Of a stretch of 64,000 nt of DNA, positions 19,869 to 29,606 are shown piece by piece (position 1 is the first letter of the stretch; every line of letters starts with the position of its first letter). The stretch spans positions 973,091 to 1,037,090 of the forward strand of contig NZ_CP133017.1 in the NCBI RefSeq assembly GCF_030866765.1. The letters run 5' to 3'. The notes under the pieces are model-generated. The model was not told the origin of the DNA, did no database searches, and worked only from the letters and a program-made list of their open reading frames with translations. Origin of the DNA: Paenibacillus silvisoli. Lineage in GTDB: Bacteria > Bacillota > Bacilli > Paenibacillales > Paenibacillaceae. Made by a program: the position numbers and the translations under genes.

Positions 19869-21329
19869 ATGAGCAGCAAGCTGCAAGTACCGGTAAACAA
19901 AAATGAAGAAGTCACCGTCGACATTGTCGGCTTGACGCATGAAGGCGAAGGGGTAGGCCGTGTCGACGGCTTTACCCTTTTTATACAGGGAGCCCTACCC
20001 GGCGAGCGCGTCCGCGCGAAGGTGCTGAAGGTGAAGAAGACGTACGGCTACGCGAAGATGCTGGAATTGGTGGTGGGGAGCCCGGACCGCGTGGAGGCGC
20101 CGTGCGCGATCTATAAGCAGTGCGGCGGCTGCCAGCTGCAGCACTTGGGCTATGAGGCACAGCTGGCGTGGAAGCGGCAGCATGTGGTCGATAATTTGGA
20201 GCGGATCGGGAAGCTGCGAGTTGCGGGGGCGGACGGTGTGGGCGGTGTGCTCGTTCACCCGACGATCGGGATGAACGAGCCTTGGCGCTACCGGAACAAG
20301 GCAGCCGTGCCGATGGGCATGGCCGCTGTGGCGACAGGCGGGGACGGCGACGGCTTGGTGTCGGCCGAGCGCCTGATCGGCGGTTTCTATGCGCGCGGCA
20401 GCCACCGCATTATTGATATGGACGAGTGCATGATTCAGCACTCTTGGAATGATGAAATCGTGGCTCGCGTGAAAGAGATTGGGCGTGAGTTAGGGATTAC
20501 GGCCTACAACGAGGAGACTGGCCGGGGCTTGTTGCGTCATGTTATGACGCGCGTCGGTTTTGTGAGCGGTGATGCAATGATTGTGCTTATCACGAATGGG
20601 GATCGGATTCCACAGGTGGATCGCTGGGTTGAGCGGATTCGTGAAGCGGCGCCGAATGTGAAGAGTATTGTGCAGAATGTGAACAAGCGTAACACCAACG
20701 TCATCTTTGGCGACGAGACCCGTGTGTTGTGGGGCAGCGAGGTCATCTATGATGAGCTTGACGGTATTCGCTTCGCGATTTCGGCGCGTTCGTTCTACCA
20801 GGTGAATCCGGTGCAAACGGTGGAGTTGTACCGCAAAGCGGTGGAGTATGCTGCGCTGACGGGGCGTGAACGGGTTATCGACGCCTACTGTGGCATCGGC
20901 ACGATTTCGCTGTTCTTGGCTCGCCAGGCGGGCCATGTCTACGGTGTCGAGATCGTGCCGGAGGCTATCGAGGACGCCGGGCGCAATGCGGCGCTGAACG
21001 GCATCGAGAACGCCTCCTTTGAAGCCGGCCCGGCTGAAGTCGTTATCCCGCGCTGGCGCAAAGAGGGCATCGTCGCGGATGTAATCGTCGTCGATCCGCC
21101 GCGCAAAGGCTGCGATGAAGCGCTGCTTGAGACGATCCTAGCGATGCGGCCGGAGCGGGTGGTGTATGTGTCGTGTAATCCTTCGACACTAGCCCGCGAT
21201 CTGCGTGTGCTTGAGGACGGCGGCTATCGGACGGTTGAGGTGCAGCCGGTGGATATGTTTCCGCATACGGTGCATGTAGAGTCCGTGGTAATGCTTACCC
21301 AATATGTAACAACCGAAGTTAAAGTATGA
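19869..21329 (+). CDS. rlmD: 23S rRNA (uracil-C5)-methyltransferase RlmCD/RumA family (TRAM, 4Fe-4S, MTase)
   Basis: TRAM N-terminus, Cys cluster [17 protein letters not shown] motif [11 protein letters not shown], catalytic VDPPRKG. Confidence 0.85.
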
Positions 21330-21340
21330 GTAAAGTTATC

Positions 21341-21385
21341 GAACCCGAGTGATTGGAAATGGCGCTCGGGTTCTTATAATTTTGC
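21341..21385 (+). terminator. Rho-independent terminator after rlmCD; marks the left edge of the low-GC island
   Basis: gaacccgag-N15-ctcgggttc followed by TTATAATTTT. Confidence 0.75.
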
Positions 21386-21431
21386 TATCCTTGAGATGTT
21401 CTGAGAAGCAGAATTGATAGTACCTAAAAGT

Positions 21432-21833
21432 TTAAGGAGAGCCTTTGCGAACAAACTGATTTTTAGCCACCAAAATGTCCCTACAGGTTTGTTCTATCAC
21501 TAAATCAAAGTTGGATTTGAGATCATGTTCCCAGACCCTGACTAAAAGCCATTTATTATTAATGTAGTATTGAGTAACTTCCCAATCTCTCTCAATGTTA
21601 CGATTTATTTTTTTATTCCAGTAATCTGAATTCTTTGAAGGCAACTTAAAGTGGGTTTTACATCCATGCCAGAAACATGAATCAATGAAAATGGCGACTT
21701 TGTACTTTTTTATTGCTATATCAGGCTTTCCGTACAATGAAAGAACGTTTTTTCGAAATCTAAAGCCATTTTTCCAAAGGGTCTTTGAGACGGACTGTTC
21801 TAATTTAGTATTTTTACCTCTTATTTTCCCCAT
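21432..21833 (-). CDS. vsr: Very-short-patch-repair (Vsr) T:G mismatch endonuclease, orphan (no adjacent Dcm)
   Basis: 133 aa, colinear with E. coli Vsr: KIRGKNTKLE...PDIAIKKYKVAIFIDSCFWHGC...WNKKINRNIERDWEV...WLLVRVWEHD. AT-rich. Confidence 0.8.
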   Translation of the reverse strand: MGKIRGKNTKLEQSVSKTLWKNGFRFRKNVLSLYGKPDIAIKKYKVAIFIDSCFWHGCKTHFKLPSKNSDYWNKKINRNIERDWEVTQYYINNKWLLVRVWEHDLKSNFDLVIEQTCRDILVAKNQFVRKGSP

Positions 21834-21893
21834 TGCCTTGCTTCTGAGATCATTAGTAGAAATGCTCTACCACGCTCCTCGGAATAATAATTA

Positions 21894-21907
21894 AGAACAT
21901 ATGTTCC
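21894..21907. promoter_or_regulatory. Putative LexA (DinR) binding site / Cheo box
   Basis: AGAACATATGTTCC matches the Bacillus SOS-box consensus CGAACATATGTTCG at 12/14 positions, with a perfect GAAC-N4-GTTC core. Located in the divergent vsr / McrB-like intergenic region. Confidence 0.55.
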
Positions 21908-22062
21908 ATATGTATTGATTTTACTTCTATATCGATTCGAAAACAATATTATCCTTTTCATTAGTGGAGTACGTATCTTTCCCTTCAGAAGGACTTTGAG
22001 CCTACCTTATCGAAATCTAAGACGGGACAAAACTTATTATTTCGATTTGGAGCGAGACGACT

Positions 22063-24801
22063 ATGACACTTCCAGTAGAACTGGCATCTATATTTCACGC
22101 AAAACAAAAATCCTACAAAATGGTCCTGATCCTATCCATTCTGAATGAGTACCAACAGACCAAGCTTCAATTTCTACCGCTCAATGCTGTTGCTGAGCGG
22201 TTTTTGTCTTATTTTCGGAATGCCACAAGAGCTGGTGAGACTGTAGACTTACCACCTCAGAAAGTGACTACTAGTTGGGAGGAACTCACGCTAGCTCGGA
22301 CCAAATCTCTACTGCAAACACCTATCGAGGCGTTGAAGTTTATACTAGATGCAAATGCAGAAACAATAACATTCAAGCCCCACATATGGTCGTTACTACA
22401 TGAACAACATTTAGACGAGCTCAGAGAATATGCAGAGTCTGAGCTAGCGAAGTATAACGAAGAGCTCGCGATGAATTCATCATTTTCTTTGAAAGCTTCG
22501 TTCGACCAAATGCTGAACAATTATTTGGAATACAAGACACAAGGGTTCGGCGGTCATCCTGTGGGCGCCCTAATTAGACAAGAGATTCCTGCATTTCTCC
22601 AGTCTCAGGAGTTTATCGGCCAGGACTACAAGGTGCAAGGCTCCATTGGCCAAGGCAACTGGGTCGGAGTTCCGTGGATCGCGATTTTGGATAAACGACT
22701 AAACGTATCTATTCAGAGCGGTGAATATATCGTCTACCTATTCTCAGAAGATATGAGTGCGGTATATCTGACTTTTGCTCATGGTGTTACCGAGCCGATA
22801 AGAGTCCATAAAAGAAAAGGAGCCTATCCATACTTTAAGCAGAAGTCCGATGAAATGCGGGGTTTCCTGCCTCTCAATAATATGCAAATTGATGAGGAGA
22901 TTCCCGGTCTAGGTGACGACTACCAGGCTGCGATTATCGCATCGATCCGTTACGATCGTAACCAAATACCGGACGATGAGCAGCTGCTCGAGGATCTTCG
23001 AAACGTAGTCGACAATTACAAAATATACGCGGACCAAGTGCTTGAAAAGCAGCACCATGAACAAGTCGAACGGCCTGTATTTACATACACAATCGCTCAT
23101 CTCTATCTGGGTAATGGAATCACTCGTTATTTAGGCCAGAATCAGAATCGCTATGTCTCCTTAGAAGAGCTCGTCTCAAACCAAGCAGTTATGCTAAAGT
23201 CCGGCGATGATGTAAAGAACCCCAAGGAAAGAATCCAGCATATTGGGCGAGCGCTGCAAGAGTTGGGCTTAATAACAATTGAAGATAATGAATATTGCCT
23301 AACTGCGAAGGGAATCGAATACGACCAGGCGCTCGGAAAAGAGACCTGGATGCTAAGCATGGGACAGGTCCATCTCTTAAGGGAGCTTTTCTTATCGAAC
23401 GAACATAATGCACAGGCGACTAGATTAATGAAATGCATCCTGCTAGGGATCTCAATCGCGAAAAAGCTCGGAACATTTAAGCTAGACTCGTTCAAATCGT
23501 TGTTTACTTCCGGAATGGGTATGGACAGCGAATGGGGAAATGTAACGCAGGAGAACCGTGCCCGGTTTATGTTGAACTGGCTGGAGGAATTTGCATACGT
23601 TCGCAAAGAAAAAGATGAGTACGCATTTGTCGAAGGGGAGGAAGAACCAGTGGACGAGCGATCGGTGACGGAGCGGGTTGAATATATTAAAGCGTACATC
23701 GAGAGCAAAGGGTTCCATTTTCCTCAAGACTTAGTCGAGAACTTTTATCTATCGCTGAAGAGTAAACCTTTTGTGATCTTGGCCGGGGTCTCCGGAACGG
23801 GGAAAACCAAATTAGTCAAATTGTTCGCGGAGGCGCTGGGGGCGACTAGTTCGAACGGACAGTTCAATCTTATTCCTGTTCGCCCGGATTGGAGCGATCC
23901 ATCCGATTTGCTGGGATATAAAGATTTAACAGGTGCATTTCGGCCCGGACATCTTGCTGAAGTATTGGTTGAAGCATCAAAGAATAGCAATCGGAACAAA
24001 CCTTATTTCATCTGCTTGGATGAAATGAACCTAGCTAGAGTTGAGCATTACTTCAGTGATCTCCTAAGTGTTATTGAAACTCAGGAAAGGCAAAATGACC
24101 GCATTGTCACGGTGCCGCTTATTCAGAGCAAGGGCCTGCTTGCAGAGGATCAACCAACCTATGGTGGTCTAGCGCTACCGGATAACGTCTATATCGTTGG
24201 CACGGTTAACATGGATGAGACAACGCATCCTTTTAGCAAAAAAGTTCTTGATCGAGCCAATACGATTGAGTTTAACTACATCAATCTTGAACAATTTCCA
24301 ACAAGGTTCTCGACCGAGATTGTACCGTTACGAGTGCCTAACTCTTTTTTACGGAGCGATTATCTTCAGCTCATTGACGCGTTCGACTCTAATCAGGAGC
24401 TGGTAAAGAGAATTACGGCTCGGCTGGTCAAGATGAATGGGATTTTGGAACAGGTTCACTCTCATATCGGTTTCCGGATTAGAGACTCGATTAGTTTCTA
24501 TATGATCTATAACGAGCAATTTGAGTTGCTGAGTGAGGATCAAGCTTTTGATCTGCAACTGTTACAGAAGCTGTTGCCCCGCGTTCAAGGCAGTAGTTCA
24601 TCCGTTAAAAGAGTGCTGCTTCAGCTCCTGCAGGAGGCACTAGGTAGGACGTTACCTATCAATGACTTGATGGATGATGCTTCCGGGCTTAATTCGCCGA
24701 TGCAGTCGAACGATGCAAAATATCCGCTTAGTGCGCGTAAGCTCGCATTTATGCTCCGGAGGTTAGAGGAAGATGGATTCACCTCTTATTGGCTCTCCTA
24801 A
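22063..24801 (+). CDS. McrB-like AAA+ GTPase with N-terminal DUF3578 (MrcB_N-like) domain; Type IV restriction-like subunit
   Basis: 912 aa. DUF3578-like block GNWVGVPWIAILDKR...YIVYLF. AAA_5/McrB motifs: Walker A LAGVSGTGKTKL, PVRPDWSDPSDLLGY, Walker B FICLDEMNLA, TVNMDETTHPFS. Confidence 0.7.
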   Translation: MTLPVELASIFHAKQKSYKMVLILSILNEYQQTKLQFLPLNAVAERFLSYFRNATRAGETVDLPPQKVTTSWEELTLARTKSLLQTPIEALKFILDANAETITFKPHIWSLLHEQHLDELREYAESELAKYNEELAMNSSFSLKASFDQMLNNYLEYKTQGFGGHPVGALIRQEIPAFLQSQEFIGQDYKVQGSIGQGNWVGVPWIAILDKRLNVSIQSGEYIVYLFSEDMSAVYLTFAHGVTEPIRVHKRKGAYPYFKQKSDEMRGFLPLNNMQIDEEIPGLGDDYQAAIIASIRYDRNQIPDDEQLLEDLRNVVDNYKIYADQVLEKQHHEQVERPVFTYTIAHLYLGNGITRYLGQNQNRYVSLEELVSNQAVMLKSGDDVKNPKERIQHIGRALQELGLITIEDNEYCLTAKGIEYDQALGKETWMLSMGQVHLLRELFLSNEHNAQATRLMKCILLGISIAKKLGTFKLDSFKSLFTSGMGMDSEWGNVTQENRARFMLNWLEEFAYVRKEKDEYAFVEGEEEPVDERSVTERVEYIKAYIESKGFHFPQDLVENFYLSLKSKPFVILAGVSGTGKTKLVKLFAEALGATSSNGQFNLIPVRPDWSDPSDLLGYKDLTGAFRPGHLAEVLVEASKNSNRNKPYFICLDEMNLARVEHYFSDLLSVIETQERQNDRIVTVPLIQSKGLLAEDQPTYGGLALPDNVYIVGTVNMDETTHPFSKKVLDRANTIEFNYINLEQFPTRFSTEIVPLRVPNSFLRSDYLQLIDAFDSNQELVKRITARLVKMNGILEQVHSHIGFRIRDSISFYMIYNEQFELLSEDQAFDLQLLQKLLPRVQGSSSSVKRVLLQLLQEALGRTLPINDLMDDASGLNSPMQSNDAKYPLSARKLAFMLRRLEEDGFTSYWLS

Positions 24802-27187
24802 CCGAAGCATCGAGCTGCTTCGCATTGAGTCGAATTTATTCAATCTCTATATACACGGGAAGCCATTTCACCCGACCGTGGATTCGTTGCAGCTTCATCG
24901 AAATGAAGAACGGCAGCTTATTCCTGCTCAGCTTCTGGTTTCTTCTACATCGAGCGTATTAGTGATTGAGAAGCTGTATGTGTTTAACCCGGAAGTTCTG
25001 AAGCTAGTAGATTGGCAGACGGGAGAGGCTGCCTACCCTCTATTTTTCGAAACGCAGTCTTATGAGTTTGTCGTCGAAAAGAAAGAGGATGTGCCGATTG
25101 CGTTCTTCCACGAGAACCTGAATATTCGCCAAGCAGTGAAACCGCTGGGCAGAGGATCGATTCTCTCCGGCGTGCTTAACTTCCAGAATGAAGTAGGGTT
25201 AACCGATCTGGAGCTACGCATGCATGGGAAGACGTTGCTTTCGCTGCAACTTGAAATCTTCCCTGTAAAAATGGACTACAAGCGCGATTATCAGATGATC
25301 TTGAATGATGTGAACCAGCAGATTTATAATCTTTCGTTTGATTTTCTGCGTAAGACCTATAATTTGACCGGGCTTAAAGAGACGAAGAATCAGAGTTTAA
25401 CGGAGTTTTTCTCCATTCTAAAACATGTCTTTAGTCATTTAATTCAGGCCGTGGAACGGATTCAATTTGCGCCACATTCTAAGCATCAGGTTGAAAATCG
25501 AATTGTATCGTCCGGGCAAGTGAGAAAGCCGGGAAAAAAGAATATCCAGTTTCTTAGTAAGCATCCGCACCTTCTAGTGCAGGACAATCATGGGATCGTG
25601 TCTATTCATGGGCAACGCTACAACCCGAGTCATGCGCTAGAGACGAAGCGTTACGTGGACTATGATACGAATGAGAATCGGTTCGTTAGATGGGTTTTAC
25701 AGCGGATCGCGCAGAAGCTTAAAGCGTTGAAACAACGTTTAACCGAGAAAGGGAAGCTTCTTGATCCCCACTTATCCAGGCAACTAACAGATATGCAATC
25801 TCAGATGCAGAGGCTGTTGGGATTGGATTTTCTGCAGGTCAAGGATATGAACAAGCTCTCGATTACGATTGTCCTGCAAATGGCACCGGGGTACCGTGAC
25901 GTGTATCGCAACTATCTCATGCTGATGAAGGGGTTATCTATCCAGAGTGATCTGTTCCATTTGTCCATGAAGGACTTGGCCCAACTATACGAATACTGGT
26001 GCTTCTTGAAAATACACGATCTGCTTAGTCGTAAATACGAGCTACTAAAACAAGATATTATTAAAGTGAATCGAACAGGCATCTTTGTCACGCTAGATAA
26101 GACGCAGAAGGCCAAGGTGGTCTACCGAAATCCTAAGAATGGCGAAGAGTTTACGCTATATTACAACACCTTGCCGCTTGGCGAGAAGACGCATACGGTT
26201 GCTCAGCGGCCGGATAATGTTTTGACGCTCAAGAAGAATGATTCCAAGACTGTGTATAAATATGTTTTCGATGCTAAGTACCGACTAGATCCTGCATACG
26301 AAGGGACGCCATACAGCCGCAATTACAAAATACCGGGACCCGAGGAATCGGATATCAATACAATGCATCGATACCGAGATGCGATTGTGTGCGAGGAAGA
26401 GCGCGGGGACGGAATTGAGCGGAGTATGTTCGGCGCGTTTGTGCTTTTTCCGTACCACGATGAGGAGCAGTATAAAGAGCATCGATTTTATAAAAGCATT
26501 CAGCTAGTGAACGTAGGGGCATTCCCGTTTTTGCCGAATGCGACGAAGTTAATGGAAGCTTTCCTGGATGAGATTATCTCGGATAGTCCAGAGAGGTCCT
26601 ATGAACGGGCAACTCGTCCAAGCGGTACGAAGACCTACTACCAGAATCAATTGAGTGGCCGAAACGTTCTAGTCGGATCGATGCGCAGAGTAGAGCAGTT
26701 AGACGAGGCTTTGAAGCATAGCTTCTATCACGTGCCGCTTGAGAATTTGACGGACCATACTGTACTCTCTCAATTGGAGTATGTAGCACTTTATCAATCT
26801 GTGAAGCAATTCGAATCTCAAGGCAGGGGCTCTGGTATCCAATGGTATGGAAAGATAAAAGACTGGAAGGTGCTCAGAAGGAGCGAAATCTCTGAAATCC
26901 CGGCAAGAGCTGGAACGGAGAACAAGCTCTACGTGAAATTCACCGTGGAGCGTTGGATGAAGCGGGAGAAGTCGATCATACCTGGCGGGCATGGGATTTA
27001 TTCGTTATTGTTGACGTCGATATATATTTTCGATCGAGCGGATGAAGTGGCTGAGTTGAGGCTTGAAACGGAAGAGGATATTCGTCTATGGCGCGAGAAG
27101 CGTCGACAAGGGCGTTTGAAGGTAGAGCTCGATCATGAGCAGGCTGATTTGGCTAGCAAGGTTGAAGCCATAACAGATGTAGAATAG
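24773..27187 (+). CDS. McrC-like partner (DUF2357-like N-terminal region, PD-(D/E)xK nuclease core, extra C-terminal domain)
   Basis: 804 aa, overlaps the upstream gene by 29 nt. McrC-like motifs DYDTNENRFVRWVL and YVFDAKYRLD (D...EXK-type core). Confidence 0.6.
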   Translation: MDSPLIGSPNRSIELLRIESNLFNLYIHGKPFHPTVDSLQLHRNEERQLIPAQLLVSSTSSVLVIEKLYVFNPEVLKLVDWQTGEAAYPLFFETQSYEFVVEKKEDVPIAFFHENLNIRQAVKPLGRGSILSGVLNFQNEVGLTDLELRMHGKTLLSLQLEIFPVKMDYKRDYQMILNDVNQQIYNLSFDFLRKTYNLTGLKETKNQSLTEFFSILKHVFSHLIQAVERIQFAPHSKHQVENRIVSSGQVRKPGKKNIQFLSKHPHLLVQDNHGIVSIHGQRYNPSHALETKRYVDYDTNENRFVRWVLQRIAQKLKALKQRLTEKGKLLDPHLSRQLTDMQSQMQRLLGLDFLQVKDMNKLSITIVLQMAPGYRDVYRNYLMLMKGLSIQSDLFHLSMKDLAQLYEYWCFLKIHDLLSRKYELLKQDIIKVNRTGIFVTLDKTQKAKVVYRNPKNGEEFTLYYNTLPLGEKTHTVAQRPDNVLTLKKNDSKTVYKYVFDAKYRLDPAYEGTPYSRNYKIPGPEESDINTMHRYRDAIVCEEERGDGIERSMFGAFVLFPYHDEEQYKEHRFYKSIQLVNVGAFPFLPNATKLMEAFLDEIISDSPERSYERATRPSGTKTYYQNQLSGRNVLVGSMRRVEQLDEALKHSFYHVPLENLTDHTVLSQLEYVALYQSVKQFESQGRGSGIQWYGKIKDWKVLRRSEISEIPARAGTENKLYVKFTVERWMKREKSIIPGGHGIYSLLLTSIYIFDRADEVAELRLETEEDIRLWREKRRQGRLKVELDHEQADLASKVEAITDVE

Positions 27188-27200
27188 TAATTACAGTAAT

Positions 27201-27236
27201 CGATGACTCCTGATCAGGGGTCATCTTTTTATTTAT
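27201..27236 (+). terminator. Terminator after the McrC-like gene
   Basis: Palindrome gatgactcctga/tcaggggtcatc followed by TTTTTATTTATT. Confidence 0.7.
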
Positions 27237-27354
27237 TCCGAGGAGCCTCCAATTCTTGCATGTTAGCTTTAGTAATAGTATGGTATTATTTTACTATCGA
27301 TTGGGTAATAAGGCCTTAAAATTAATAAATCTTTTTATGCTAGGGGATAGACTG

Positions 27355-28338
27355 ATGTCATTATTAAATAAACTTTTTGGTCAAAAACGTACAATTCTAA
27401 ATCCAACATTCATAAAAGACTTTACTAAAGAGAATCATCAGCTGGTGGCTCTAAACGAGCTGTATCATAAAGTTGCCGAAGGCGAACAAAAGGATAATAT
27501 CGATAGGGACATTAAGCTCCTAAAGTACGGAATAGATGGAGAGAATAATGTTTATTTCGAATTGAAAAACTCATTCTTACCAATACTCTGTCTTCATGAT
27601 ATTAGACTAGAGTATGAGGATTTCGTTGCTCAACTTGATTTTGTCGTCATTTCGTCCAAATTCATATGCATCCTTGAAACTAAAAAGCTAAGTGGAAACA
27701 TATCGATCGACTCAGACGGTAATTTTACAAGAACTATGAAGAATAAACATGGTAAGGAATTCAAAGAGGGCATCTATAGCCCTGTCACTCAAAATATGAG
27801 ACATGTCGATATACTTAAACATGTACTTTCGAAAGAACTAAAAACCAATAATATGCCGATCATGTCTCTTGTAGTTATGGCTAACCCTAAAACAATAATA
27901 AAGAAATATAAGTGCCCTGCAGAGATTGAAAGAACGCTGATTAAGTATGATCAAATTAAAGCGACGATCGAGAAGTTCCAAGATGATAAGTCGAATCAAT
28001 ACGATCTTCCAGAGAAGGATATGTATGATATAGCTCAAATGCTGATCAGGCTTAATACCCCTATAGAGATGGATTTCAATGCAATGTATCAACTTTCAAG
28101 TGAAACTTCAAAAAGAAAAAGTGAAGAAACGCTTCGAGAAGAGCTGACAGCCTACAGGCTGCAGACTTCAAGAGTGGAACAAATCAAAGCGTACTACATT
28201 TATAATAATGCTGAAATGGAAGAGATGATTGCAAAATACCCTAGAACAGAGAATGAGTTGCTGGAAGTAAAGGGTTTTGGGAAAGTAAAGGTAGAGAAGT
28301 ATGGGAGTGCAATTTTAAACATATTTAATGGGGATTAA
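27355..28338 (+). CDS. NERD-domain nuclease-like protein with C-terminal HRDC-like domain
   Basis: Start moved to the ATG at 27355 (GGGGA RBS). NERD-like core DFVVISSKFICILETKK...YSPVTQNMRHVDIL. C-terminus ELLEVKGFGKVKVEKYGSAIL resembles RecQ-type HRDC/HhH. Confidence 0.6.
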   Translation: MSLLNKLFGQKRTILNPTFIKDFTKENHQLVALNELYHKVAEGEQKDNIDRDIKLLKYGIDGENNVYFELKNSFLPILCLHDIRLEYEDFVAQLDFVVISSKFICILETKKLSGNISIDSDGNFTRTMKNKHGKEFKEGIYSPVTQNMRHVDILKHVLSKELKTNNMPIMSLVVMANPKTIIKKYKCPAEIERTLIKYDQIKATIEKFQDDKSNQYDLPEKDMYDIAQMLIRLNTPIEMDFNAMYQLSSETSKRKSEETLREELTAYRLQTSRVEQIKAYYIYNNAEMEEMIAKYPRTENELLEVKGFGKVKVEKYGSAILNIFNGD

Positions 28339-28402
28339 GCTAATCAAGCTTGCCGCATTTTGCAAGGTGTGAATTGAATTGTTTAACTAGGAGAGGGATG
28401 TT

Positions 28403-28654
28403 ATGTCGCCTAATCGTAATTGGATTCCAGTTACATTTAAAAAAAGTAACCAGCCTTTTAAGGAATTCGAAAGTATTCAAGAATGCTTTAGATATTTAGC
28501 GACTATGAGTGAATTTGTAGGACATAGCAAGAGTGAAATTTATAACATAATTAATGCTGGTATAGATGTAGCAAAGCCCCACGGGGAATTTACGTTCGAA
28601 ACTCCCTATGATGTACAAGCCAGAGCGAATCGCAAAACAAGAAGAGGATACTGA
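28403..28654 (+). CDS. Hypothetical small protein (83 aa)
   Basis: AGGAGAGGG RBS. AT-rich island gene downstream of the NERD gene. No recognisable domain. Confidence 0.4.
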   Translation: MSPNRNWIPVTFKKSNQPFKEFESIQECFRYLATMSEFVGHSKSEIYNIINAGIDVAKPHGEFTFETPYDVQARANRKTRRGY

Positions 28655-28697
28655 GTGAAAAACTAACAAGATATATAGATGAGTATTGAAAAAATTG

Positions 28698-28738
28698 AAG
28701 GGGCGAGCTAATAGCTTAATTAGCTGCGCCCCTCTATA
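28698..28738. terminator. Bidirectional terminator between convergent island genes
   Basis: gaaggggcgagctaat-agc-ttaattagctgcgcccctct. Confidence 0.65.
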
Positions 28739-28778
28739 AATTGACCATGTACCGACAGCAATCTACTTAGTAGAGGAA

Positions 28779-29606
28779 CTATGAAGTTAGCTCCTCATCC
28801 CCCTCCGCACTAACCCCATAACGCTCCAAAGCCTTCGTCGAAGACTCAAGCATCCGCTTTTTCAAATACTCCGCTTCTACCACCCGAACCCGTTTCCCAA
28901 GAAACCGGATCTTGGACAATAAATACTCCGCTTCATCCTTAAGCAGCGAAACGCGGACCAGATAAGTATCGTTCATCGTATCGTACTCCACGTTCTTCTC
29001 GAAGCTGGAGAAGGCGTACAGAATTCGAGACAATTCCTCGTTATACTGACGGACAATTTCAATGACCGCTTCGCTTTTGCGCGATTCAAGCGTTTTTCCG
29101 ATCCGCCCCAGGATGCTCTCGGCCGTTGACGGATCAACCAATTCCGCGTCGACGGAGTGGATCTTTTTCAGCCGGGTGCTCATAAAGGTACGATACCGAG
29201 CGTGGTACCAGAGCAAGTACCATTCTCGCTTGACCATGGAGTACTCCAGTTTATACGGAAGCCCCAATTGCTCCGAATACACCTGCCCGCCCTTAATTTC
29301 GTAGGTGATGCGGATGCCTGCCTTATTCATGATGTGCCGGCGCAAGGGCCGCAGGAGCGGGTGGTAGACCTGCCGTTCCATGGTACGAGCCTTCTCGATC
29401 AAGTGGAGAGAACTATCCGTAACCTCATCCGGCTCAAGGACAGCCCGAAGCTTCTCCAACGTGTCCGGGGTGAAGGCATCTGCCGTGGCGGGATGCTCCA
29501 TCATCGTCTTGAGCCATGCCCGCTCGTGCGAGGTGACCATGAATGTACCGGAATCCTCCAGCCGGGAGATGATCTGGTGATTAAAGATTTTCTCAAACAG
29601 ATGCAT
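28779..29606 (-). CDS. WYL-domain protein (second of a tandem WYL pair)
   Basis: WYL signature KREWYLLWYHARYRTFMSTRL. ATG at 29606 overlaps the end of the upstream WYL gene by 14 nt, consistent with translational coupling. Confidence 0.65.
   Translation of the reverse strand: MHLFEKIFNHQIISRLEDSGTFMVTSHERAWLKTMMEHPATADAFTPDTLEKLRAVLEPDEVTDSSLHLIEKARTMERQVYHPLLRPLRRHIMNKAGIRITYEIKGGQVYSEQLGLPYKLEYSMVKREWYLLWYHARYRTFMSTRLKKIHSVDAELVDPSTAESILGRIGKTLESRKSEAVIEIVRQYNEELSRILYAFSSFEKNVEYDTMNDTYLVRVSLLKDEAEYLLSKIRFLGKRVRVVEAEYLKKRMLESSTKALERYGVSAEGDEELTS

Follow-up and report, generated by a model that had tools for sequence, protein, structure and literature searches.

A NERD-HRDC nuclease gene inserted as a one-gene cassette into an McrBC-like operon of Paenibacillus silvisoli: a candidate single-gene defence nuclease

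The open reading frame (ORF) at 27355-28338 of a 64,000-nt stretch of the Paenibacillus silvisoli genome (NCBI RefSeq assembly GCF_030866765.1, contig NZ_CP133017.1, positions 973,091 to 1,037,090; hereafter the window) encodes a predicted NERD-family nuclease of the PD-(D/E)xK type with an intact active site, fused to a RecQ-type HRDC domain. The gene, here called NERD-HRDC, is an insertion of ~1.15 kb between the McrC gene of a type IV restriction-like operon and its usual downstream gene, at most ~10 bp from the McrC stop codon. It constitutes a self-contained one-gene cassette (terminator, its own extended -10 promoter, leader and ORF) of foreign origin and low guanine-plus-cytosine (GC) content. 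In our estimate there is roughly an even chance (probability about 0.5) that NERD-HRDC serves as an accessory nuclease that spreads horizontally and acts against invading DNA, and thus is a single-gene defence candidate embedded in a restriction operon. The defence step is the least secure part of this explanation, reasonable yet unproven. The domain architecture has already been catalogued and will not surprise the specialist; the new points are how cleanly the gene was inserted into a restriction operon, the conservation of its promoter cassette, the exchange of HRDC for a zinc ribbon in sister proteins, and the reassignment of a small ORF to the McrBC-like module.

The gene, the parts of its product and the predicted catalytic residues are as follows.

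27355-28338, + strand: NERD-HRDC protein gene, ATG 27355 to TAA 28338, 327 aa
27342-27347, + strand: AGGGGA ribosome-binding site of the NERD-HRDC ORF, 8 nt upstream of ATG 27355
aa 1-58: family-specific N-terminal extension
27529-27879, + strand (aa 59-175): NERD PD-(D/E)xK core (Pfam)
aa 176-257: helical linker subdomain
28126-28323, + strand (aa 258-323): HRDC domain (Pfam)
27541-27792, + strand: span of the predicted catalytic residues (alignment of 74 homologues and AlphaFold2 secondary structure)
27541-27543, + strand: E63, predicted catalytic, invariant in the 74 homologues
27637-27639, + strand: D95, predicted catalytic, at least 90% conserved in the 74 homologues
27676-27678, + strand: E108, predicted catalytic, invariant in the 74 homologues
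27682-27684, + strand: K110, predicted catalytic, invariant in the 74 homologues
27790-27792, + strand: Q146, predicted catalytic, invariant in the 74 homologues

Both this ORF and the 83-aa ORF behind it were found at the positions assigned to them in an earlier, first-pass annotation of the sequence, which had proposed a NERD core with a PD-(D/E)xK-related nuclease fold and a C-terminal RecQ-type HRDC module. Both assignments were upheld. Pfam NERD (PF08378) scored 63.8 bits against a cut-off of 22.1 (E 2.6e-17, with profile positions 2-110 of 111 covered), and Pfam HRDC (PF00570) scored 55.7 bits against a cut-off of 23.8 (E 4.9e-15). NCBIfam RecQ models matched the protein at its C-terminus only, and in the PDB a profile built from the 74 homologues matched HRDC chains of RecQ and BLM, at best with 7e-13. 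The same alignment was used for an AlphaFold2 model, whose mean predicted local distance difference test (pLDDT) score was 90.1. In this model the C-terminal domain superposed on HRDC3 of Deinococcus radiodurans RecQ (2rhf) with a target-normalised template modelling (TM) score of 0.90, a root-mean-square deviation (rmsd) of 1.0 A and 33% identity, and on the HRDC of Escherichia coli RecQ (1wud) with a target-normalised TM score of 0.82. Judged from the Pfam score and the superposition, the domain has the five-helix HRDC fold. Furthermore, the family-invariant Y280 falls, in the alignment, on the 'PPY' tyrosine of the E. coli RecQ HRDC, a residue reportedly needed for binding of single-stranded DNA.

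The catalytic layout fits the PD-(D/E)xK scheme, with an acidic residue in helix 1, the aspartate in strand 2, ExK in strand 3 and the glutamine in the next helix; T109, between E108 and K110, is likewise invariant in the 74 homologues. Searches with Foldseek matched the nuclease half to Can2, VC1899, the R2 restriction-like endonuclease (R2-RLE) and Bax1 with probabilities of 0.9-0.99, a likeness at the fold level only (E ~2e-3, low global TM). Staphylococcus aureus SmdA, a NERD-like morphology factor, lacks several conserved residues, and NERD proteins are functionally diverse; the intact active site of NERD-HRDC therefore matters.

The ORF-finder list included an alternative start, TTG 27256, giving a longer reading of the NERD-HRDC ORF. 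This start was rejected, since nearly all homologues begin with M-S-L/I at ATG 27355 in the homologue alignment and since the conserved promoter described below (27281-27297) sits inside the putative extension; ATG 27355 is thus the true start. The protein is 100% identical to the NCBI P. silvisoli entry 'NERD domain-containing protein'. A total of 381 homologues were detected in Paenibacillus, Brevibacillus, Clostridium, Desulfotomaculum and relatives, with both domains present in 120 of 120 among the homologues listed. Many family members are labelled 'aldolase' in databases, a common label that is wrong and is corrected by the present analysis.

In order to place NERD-HRDC among known systems, it was compared with other NERD, HRDC and PD-(D/E)xK proteins. 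With the Pfam NERD family (PF08378) it shares clear hidden Markov model membership, the (D/E)xK signature and the PD-(D/E)xK fold; the function, cassette and genomic behaviour of the HRDC subfamily, by contrast, are not described in the literature searched. The original definition of NERD, with pXO1-01 as its prototype, is said to have listed the NERD plus HRDC and NERD plus topoisomerase-zinc-finger architectures. The likeness to the RecQ HRDC domains 1wud and 2rhf (25-33% identity, target-normalised TM 0.82-0.90, rmsd ~1 A, Y280 at the 'PPY' tyrosine) is confined to that module, which here is carried by a nuclease, not a helicase, and no helicase or RQC domain was found in the 327-aa protein. 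The best solved structural neighbours of the nuclease half are Can2/Card1 and VC1899, which combine CARF with PD-(D/E)xK and share its restriction-endonuclease-like core (Foldseek probability 0.98-0.99). NERD-HRDC differs from them in having no CARF, and the resemblance, at 11-14% identity and a query-normalised global TM of ~0.27, is one of fold only. NERD is also listed in Mokosh I and Nhi-like systems, where it is fused to or paired with a helicase. NERD-HRDC has no helicase domain, it had no Nhi or Mokosh match in PADLOC, and no helicase gene was conserved nearby at ortholog loci.

Among NERD effectors of defence systems, HEC-02 consists of an ABC ATPase and a NERD effector, is experimentally active and is found embedded in Hma systems (Payne et al., 10.1101/2024.01.29.577857); genes embedded in defence systems are often defence genes (10.1101/2024.01.29.577857). 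Like NERD-HRDC in its McrBC-like operon, HEC-02 carries a (D/E)xK NERD nuclease and lies within another defence system. In contrast, HEC-02 needs its partner ABC ATPase and HEC-02B is without HRDC, whereas no gene for an ABC or SMC-type ATPase was found beside NERD-HRDC in the window or in ~11 related contexts. ZwsA (Zowangsin) is a stand-alone NERD-domain RNA endonuclease active against RNA phages in Pseudomonas (10.64898/2026.04.06.716636). Like NERD-HRDC it is a single protein that combines a NERD catalytic core (E/D/E-x-K) with a nucleic-acid-binding domain, and it works without a partner; it differs in its VHS-DUF647-NERD-S4 architecture, NERD and HRDC being the only domains detected in the 327-aa protein.

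The example of ZwsA, which alone cleaves RNA-phage genomes, raises the question of whether NERD-HRDC could be an RNA-directed nuclease acting on phage or cellular RNA, with its HRDC binding RNA as proposed for RNase D and Rrp6. The Foldseek search also returned these two HRDC-containing RNases, as well as viral cap-snatching PD-(D/E)xK endonucleases. We regard this explanation as quite improbable. The HRDC of NERD-HRDC is closest to that of RecQ, as given by the target-normalised TM of 0.90 and the 33% identity to 2rhf, against a TM of ~0.17 for Rrp6, and none of the S4, VHS or DUF647 domains of ZwsA is present. Furthermore, the alternative C-terminal module of sister proteins is a topoisomerase DNA-binding zinc ribbon. 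In two such proteins, encoded at L027 5926-6936 and L028 5983-6915 (both IMG/VR), the 250-aa NERD module is whole and Zn_ribbon_Top1 (PF01396), a topoisomerase-type C4 ribbon, replaces HRDC. The RecQ-type HRDC points to DNA, unlike the case of ZwsA.

The second line of evidence is the position of the gene within the restriction-like operon, for which the relevant features are listed here.

22063-24801, + strand: McrB-like GTPase gene (MrcB_N/DUF3578 and AAA_5), first gene of the type IV restriction-like operon
24773-27187, + strand: McrC-like gene (DUF2357 and PDDEXK_7; Pfam 1.9e-62 and 1.2e-47, respectively)
28339-28402, + strand: spacer between NERD-HRDC and the 83-aa ORF, 64 bp, carrying the ribosome-binding site of the small ORF
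28390-28398, + strand: ribosome-binding site GGAGAGGGA of the 83-aa ORF
28403-28654, + strand: 83-aa ORF, assigned to the McrBC-like operon

The McrB-like gene matched Pfam MrcB_N (6.9e-46) and AAA_5 (1.8e-08), PADLOC PDC-M26A (6e-56) and NCBIfam McrB (1.4e-12), and is overlapped by the McrC-like gene by 29 bp. The pair is collinear with its counterpart in Paenibacillus sp. CF384 (locus L002) at 72% DNA identity. Two aligned blocks, window 21986-27177 with L002 2727-7929 and window 28402-28645 with L002 8000-8246, are separated by 71 bp in CF384 and by 1225 bp in the window, and the CF384 spacer from the McrC stop codon to the ATG of the small gene measures 61 bp. Homology to CF384 stops at window 27177, ten bases ahead of the McrC stop codon (27185-27187) that marks the left edge of the insertion. 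NERD-HRDC is identified as an insertion because the orthologous McrBC-like pair of CF384 has the small gene immediately behind it. According to the alignment with CF384 and P. lignilyticus, the part of the spacer at ~28350-28402 is left over from the ancestral spacer that separated McrC from the small gene. Around 27188-28350 there were neither terminal inverted repeats nor a convincing duplication of the target, only short chance matches; a TAATC-type similarity at the two junctions is weak and too short to count. The insertion is a clean natural case of a gene embedded in a defence operon, and this embedding therefore supports 'guilt by embedding' as a discovery rule.

Base composition across the island (21400-28750) forms a mosaic, with ~34% GC in a Vsr gene, 42-49% in the McrBC-like pair and 35-38% in NERD-HRDC and the small ORF, in a host region of 50-63% GC. 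This mosaic suggests at least two separate acquisitions. The Vsr-type very-short-patch repair endonuclease gene lies at 21432-21833 on the - strand (Pfam 1.5e-21, 34% GC). No cytosine methyltransferase gene adjoins it, its neighbours being an rRNA/tRNA methyltransferase-like gene upstream (19869-21329) and the McrB-like gene downstream; in P. lignilyticus (L001) the Vsr gene stands next to a Dcm-type methylase. The copy in the window looks like an orphan left in the island.

The inserted segment brings its own signals for expression.

27202-27225, + strand: intrinsic-terminator-like hairpin and T run, a 10-bp stem with 5 GC pairs followed by TTTTTATTTA (terminator scan)
27281-27297, + strand: extended -10 promoter and start region TGGTATTATTTTACTAT (family consensus TGGTATAATnTnACTAT)

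The terminator-like hairpin stands at the left end of the inserted segment, ahead of the promoter, and has no counterpart in the CF384 spacer between McrC and the small gene; it would insulate NERD-HRDC from McrBC read-through. The promoter has no recognisable -35 element. A sigma-70 consensus scan of 27000-28900 found no promoter, missing this candidate because a -35 is lacking, and it was revealed only by an alignment of 12 upstream regions, in which the motif TGGTATAATnTnACTAT is invariant and the remainder cannot be aligned. A single occurrence was found in the 64-kb window, where 0 were expected by chance, and a single one in each of 17 ortholog loci (~9 distinct sites), always 24-86 nt upstream of the ATG; the motif travels with the gene across genera. 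Conservation extends past the -10 into ACTAT, which suggests that an operator or a constraint on the start site is present. A leader of roughly 60 nt follows. Compared with 20 related loci, the window shows DNA homology over the ORF and ~20 bp only. SOS regulation was rejected as a candidate, no Cheo/LexA box being found within 300 bp upstream in 13 loci. A search for riboswitches and known RNAs gave no Rfam match at E <= 0.1 in 21000-31500.

To gain insight into the origin of the cassette, composition, distribution and genomic context were compared among related loci. The GC content of the gene is 35% in the window and 27-38% across hosts, with flanks of up to 55%. In P. dendritiformis, GC at third codon positions (GC3) is 0.37 in NERD-HRDC and 0.62-0.70 in its neighbours. 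Between P. dendritiformis and Brevibacillus laterosporus the NERD-HRDC proteins share 83% identity, compared with 68-72% for Spo0A, 55% for SpoIVB and 48% for RecN. The low GC content and an identity above that of the neighbours thus point to horizontal transfer from a low-GC pool. With the patterns used, nine close loci were found among 185,579 species genomes, and no neighbouring gene was conserved across ~11 distinct contexts, in agreement with the stand-alone nature first ascribed to the protein. The gene directly follows spo0A in B. laterosporus, B. gelatini and P. dendritiformis, with the recN-spoIVB-spo0A cluster immediately upstream, and directly follows groEL in two Paenibacillus species, one of them with an integrase; other copies adjoin prophage ends or integrases, and some close relatives lie on large plasmids. 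Defence-like settings were observed in three of the ~11 contexts: the McrBC-like genes and Vsr in the window, two flanking SoFic-like genes at L012, and, at L019, an Mrr-like gene, an HNH gene and a Schlafen/AlbA_2-domain gene (SLFN_AlbA_2, matching PADLOC candidate PDC-S50).

Close relatives are not phage genes, because only one partial match was obtained in 50,697 phage genomes and the IMG/VR relatives are distant (four, at 34-39% identity, near terminase genes). The sister genes at L027 and L028, two of these four, and the distant NERD-HRDC gene at L025 lie near terminase or capsid genes on viral contigs. Two further observations concern spo0A. In P. endophyticus, the prophage-remnant island that contains the NERD-HRDC gene has at its far edge a duplicated 3' fragment of spo0A (L004/L019 13190-13410), which is 85% identical in DNA to the gene of P. 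dendritiformis, and in some B. laterosporus strains a prophage lies between spo0A and the NERD gene (L013 compared with L014/L015).

A recurring unit that consists of exactly promoter and ORF could also be that of a selfish, free-standing homing-type endonuclease, which would cut empty alleles and be copied by repair, promoter and ORF together, into spacers downstream of conserved genes. PD-(D/E)xK homing endonucleases exist, the cassette is AT-rich relative to its hosts, and it sits at most ~10 bp from the McrC stop here and right after spo0A or groEL in different genera. P. dendritiformis and B. laterosporus furthermore share contiguous homology at 74% DNA identity from the 3' third of spo0A through the NERD gene (L007 7223-8981 and L013 5251-6981), compared with 67% in the remaining spo0A. 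The insertion sites, however, are unlike each other in sequence and show neither target-site duplication nor terminal repeats. Only one copy was present at any locus fetched, and phages, in which free-standing homing genes do well, almost entirely lack the gene. Synonymous divergence (dS) between copies is at least 1, so no recent copies are present. The 3' end of spo0A has the appearance of a hot spot for integration, and the 3' regions of both spo0A and groEL are general hot spots with integrases and prophages. On balance, homing is a very unlikely account of the distribution.

The preferred reading, a nuclease against invading DNA, has precedents in HEC-02 and ZwsA, whose NERD effectors provide defence in experiments. 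Under this reading the enzyme would act alone. HRDC and the Topo-I zinc ribbon are single-stranded-DNA-binding parts of DNA-processing enzymes, and the C-terminal module (HRDC, or the zinc ribbon in the sisters) would hold the nuclease on DNA that is single-stranded or branched (intermediates of replication or recombination, or ends, for example), after which the NERD core would cut the bound DNA in a metal-dependent manner. Expression would be driven by a strong, constitutive-looking promoter, with no immunity gene; the host would therefore have to rely for its protection on the substrate specificity or autoinhibition of the enzyme, with no antitoxin involved. If the enzyme does defend its host, a compact (~1 kb), partner-free nuclease would be added to the single-gene systems.

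A broader reading is possible but tentative: NERD-HRDC and its zinc-ribbon sister may together represent an unrecognised single-protein immune nuclease of spore-forming Firmicutes that senses DNA structure, not sequence or modification, and spreads as a promoter-plus-ORF cassette, landing in the 3' spacers of conserved genes and within other defence operons. A more radical version would have the cassette drive its own spread as a homing-type element. Should the protein prove to defend its host, it could also be used to test whether foreign DNA is told apart by structure, and not by sequence, by means of an HRDC or Topo-I zinc-ribbon module.

Several observations weigh against a role in defence. 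Constitutive expression is read from a sequence motif only. The NERD-HRDC fusion protein is not discussed in the literature searched, and in PADLOC, against which the first-pass annotation had proposed to check the gene, the nuclease part had no match at E <= 0.01 in version 2.0.0 of the database, which dates from 2023 and may lack later systems; the sole PADLOC match was that of the HRDC part to DpdF C-termini (1.3e-10). At least six of the ~11 contexts are housekeeping ones without defence genes in the vicinity, the gene there following spo0A or groEL or standing between metabolic genes. The ratio of non-synonymous to synonymous divergence (dN/dS) is ~0.07 with saturated dS, indicating strong purifying selection, which fits a core enzyme better than an arms-race gene, and the conservation of the protein is far above that usual for defence genes. 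In addition, the substrate could be RNA, because HRDC domains also occur in RNase D and Rrp6.

The extreme conservation, the housekeeping contexts and the lack of a PADLOC match for the nuclease part keep alive a role in repair or recombination. NERD-HRDC would then be an accessory nuclease acting on host DNA structures such as stalled forks and recombination intermediates, with no immune role, and its location in a restriction island would be incidental. This is consistent with its place directly downstream of recN-spoIVB-spo0A in three species, with an invariant promoter and no immunity gene, and with HRDC being otherwise typical of RecQ helicases; NERD proteins are also among candidate repair genes in Deinococcus (PMC6300522). 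A repair function is less readily reconciled with the patchy distribution (nine close loci), with the foreign GC and codon usage of the gene in high-GC hosts, or with the lack of conserved synteny beyond variable hot spots. Furthermore, the gene is inserted in a restriction operon here and flanked by SoFic-like genes at L012, distant relatives reside on prophages, and no LexA (Cheo) box precedes it in any of 13 loci. We consider a repair role unlikely, although it deserves serious attention.

The 83-aa ORF had been suggested as an accessory or antitoxin-like partner of the nuclease. As described at first, it follows the NERD gene with its own ribosome-binding site, GGAGAGGGA. The description of its product as basic is only partly accurate, since the C-terminal tail is basic and the protein overall is mildly so (12 K/R against 9 D/E by direct count). 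The product is 100% identical to a P. silvisoli protein and had zero matches in Pfam, PADLOC, NCBIfam and PHROGs. Two close relatives were found among 5.8 billion proteins, and an exhaustive profile search of 1.84 billion representatives gave a family of ~10 members. Its dN/dS of 0.29-0.46 indicates a real gene. The AlphaFold2 model (pLDDT 76) had no significant fold match in the PDB, the best, non-significant matches being the DNA-binding region of I-HmuI (E 0.3) and AcrVA3 (E 0.58), and an impression of a NUMOD-like helix-turn-helix was not confirmed.

Relatives of the small ORF tie it to McrC. It shares 74% DNA identity with the gene directly after McrC in CF384 (L002 8001-8282), and the P. 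lignilyticus relative (L001 8001-8282), within a restriction-modification island, comes after 92 bp left over from the 3' end of McrC, so that with the window there are three McrBC-linked cases. Two distant relatives lie elsewhere, one alone (L023) and one in an SPbeta-like phage contig (L024), and one family member (P0128) is joined N-terminally to DUF3427 and an HNH nuclease. By tblastn the small ORF was absent from nine of nine NERD-HRDC ortholog loci, and the gene lists of further ortholog loci show no such small gene after NERD. Conversely, no NERD gene was present at any of the four other placeable loci of the small-ORF family (two close and two distant relatives).

A two-gene toxin-antitoxin or effector-accessory pair is, on these data, scarcely credible. 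It is true that only 64 bp separate the two ORFs, which share a strand, that a terminator scan of this spacer (28339-28402) found none, and that the small ORF is a real gene under purifying selection. Their adjacency, however, was created by the ~1.15-kb insertion, the small gene is ancestrally tied to the McrC 3' end, and neither gene accompanies the other at the remaining loci analysed; the first-pass annotation had listed a lack of conservation of the small ORF with the NERD gene among the findings that would refute it, and this lack refutes the pairing. Comparison of the loci instead places the 83-aa ORF, as we infer, third in the McrBC-like operon, displaced by the insertion and with no tie to the NERD gene as a partner. 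Its product may act in type IV restriction systems as an accessory or a DNA-binding module that has so far gone unrecognised, and the ORF belongs in the study of the McrBC-like system, not of the nuclease. In CF384 the small gene overlaps a further 76-aa Cys-rich ORF (L002 8275-8505).

The remaining surroundings given in the first-pass annotation, McrBC-like genes upstream and two WYL proteins downstream on the other strand, were borne out by Pfam. The WYL genes (28779-30906, - strand) encode a PafBC-like pair, an HTH-WYL-WCX (helix-turn-helix, WYL and WCX) protein of 437 aa and a WYL-only protein of 285 aa. They are host-like in GC content and divergent from a row of SPFH, RlaP and RtcB genes (31443-34602, + strand) of an RNA-repair pathway; the WYL pair more likely regulates this operon than the restriction/NERD island. 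Further downstream, a 918-aa protein (34726-37482) contains dozens of short 'SHAEG'-type repeats and a terminal Peptidase_G2/IMC autoproteolytic chaperone domain (2.5e-21); phage tail-spike or fibre-like proteins are built in this way.

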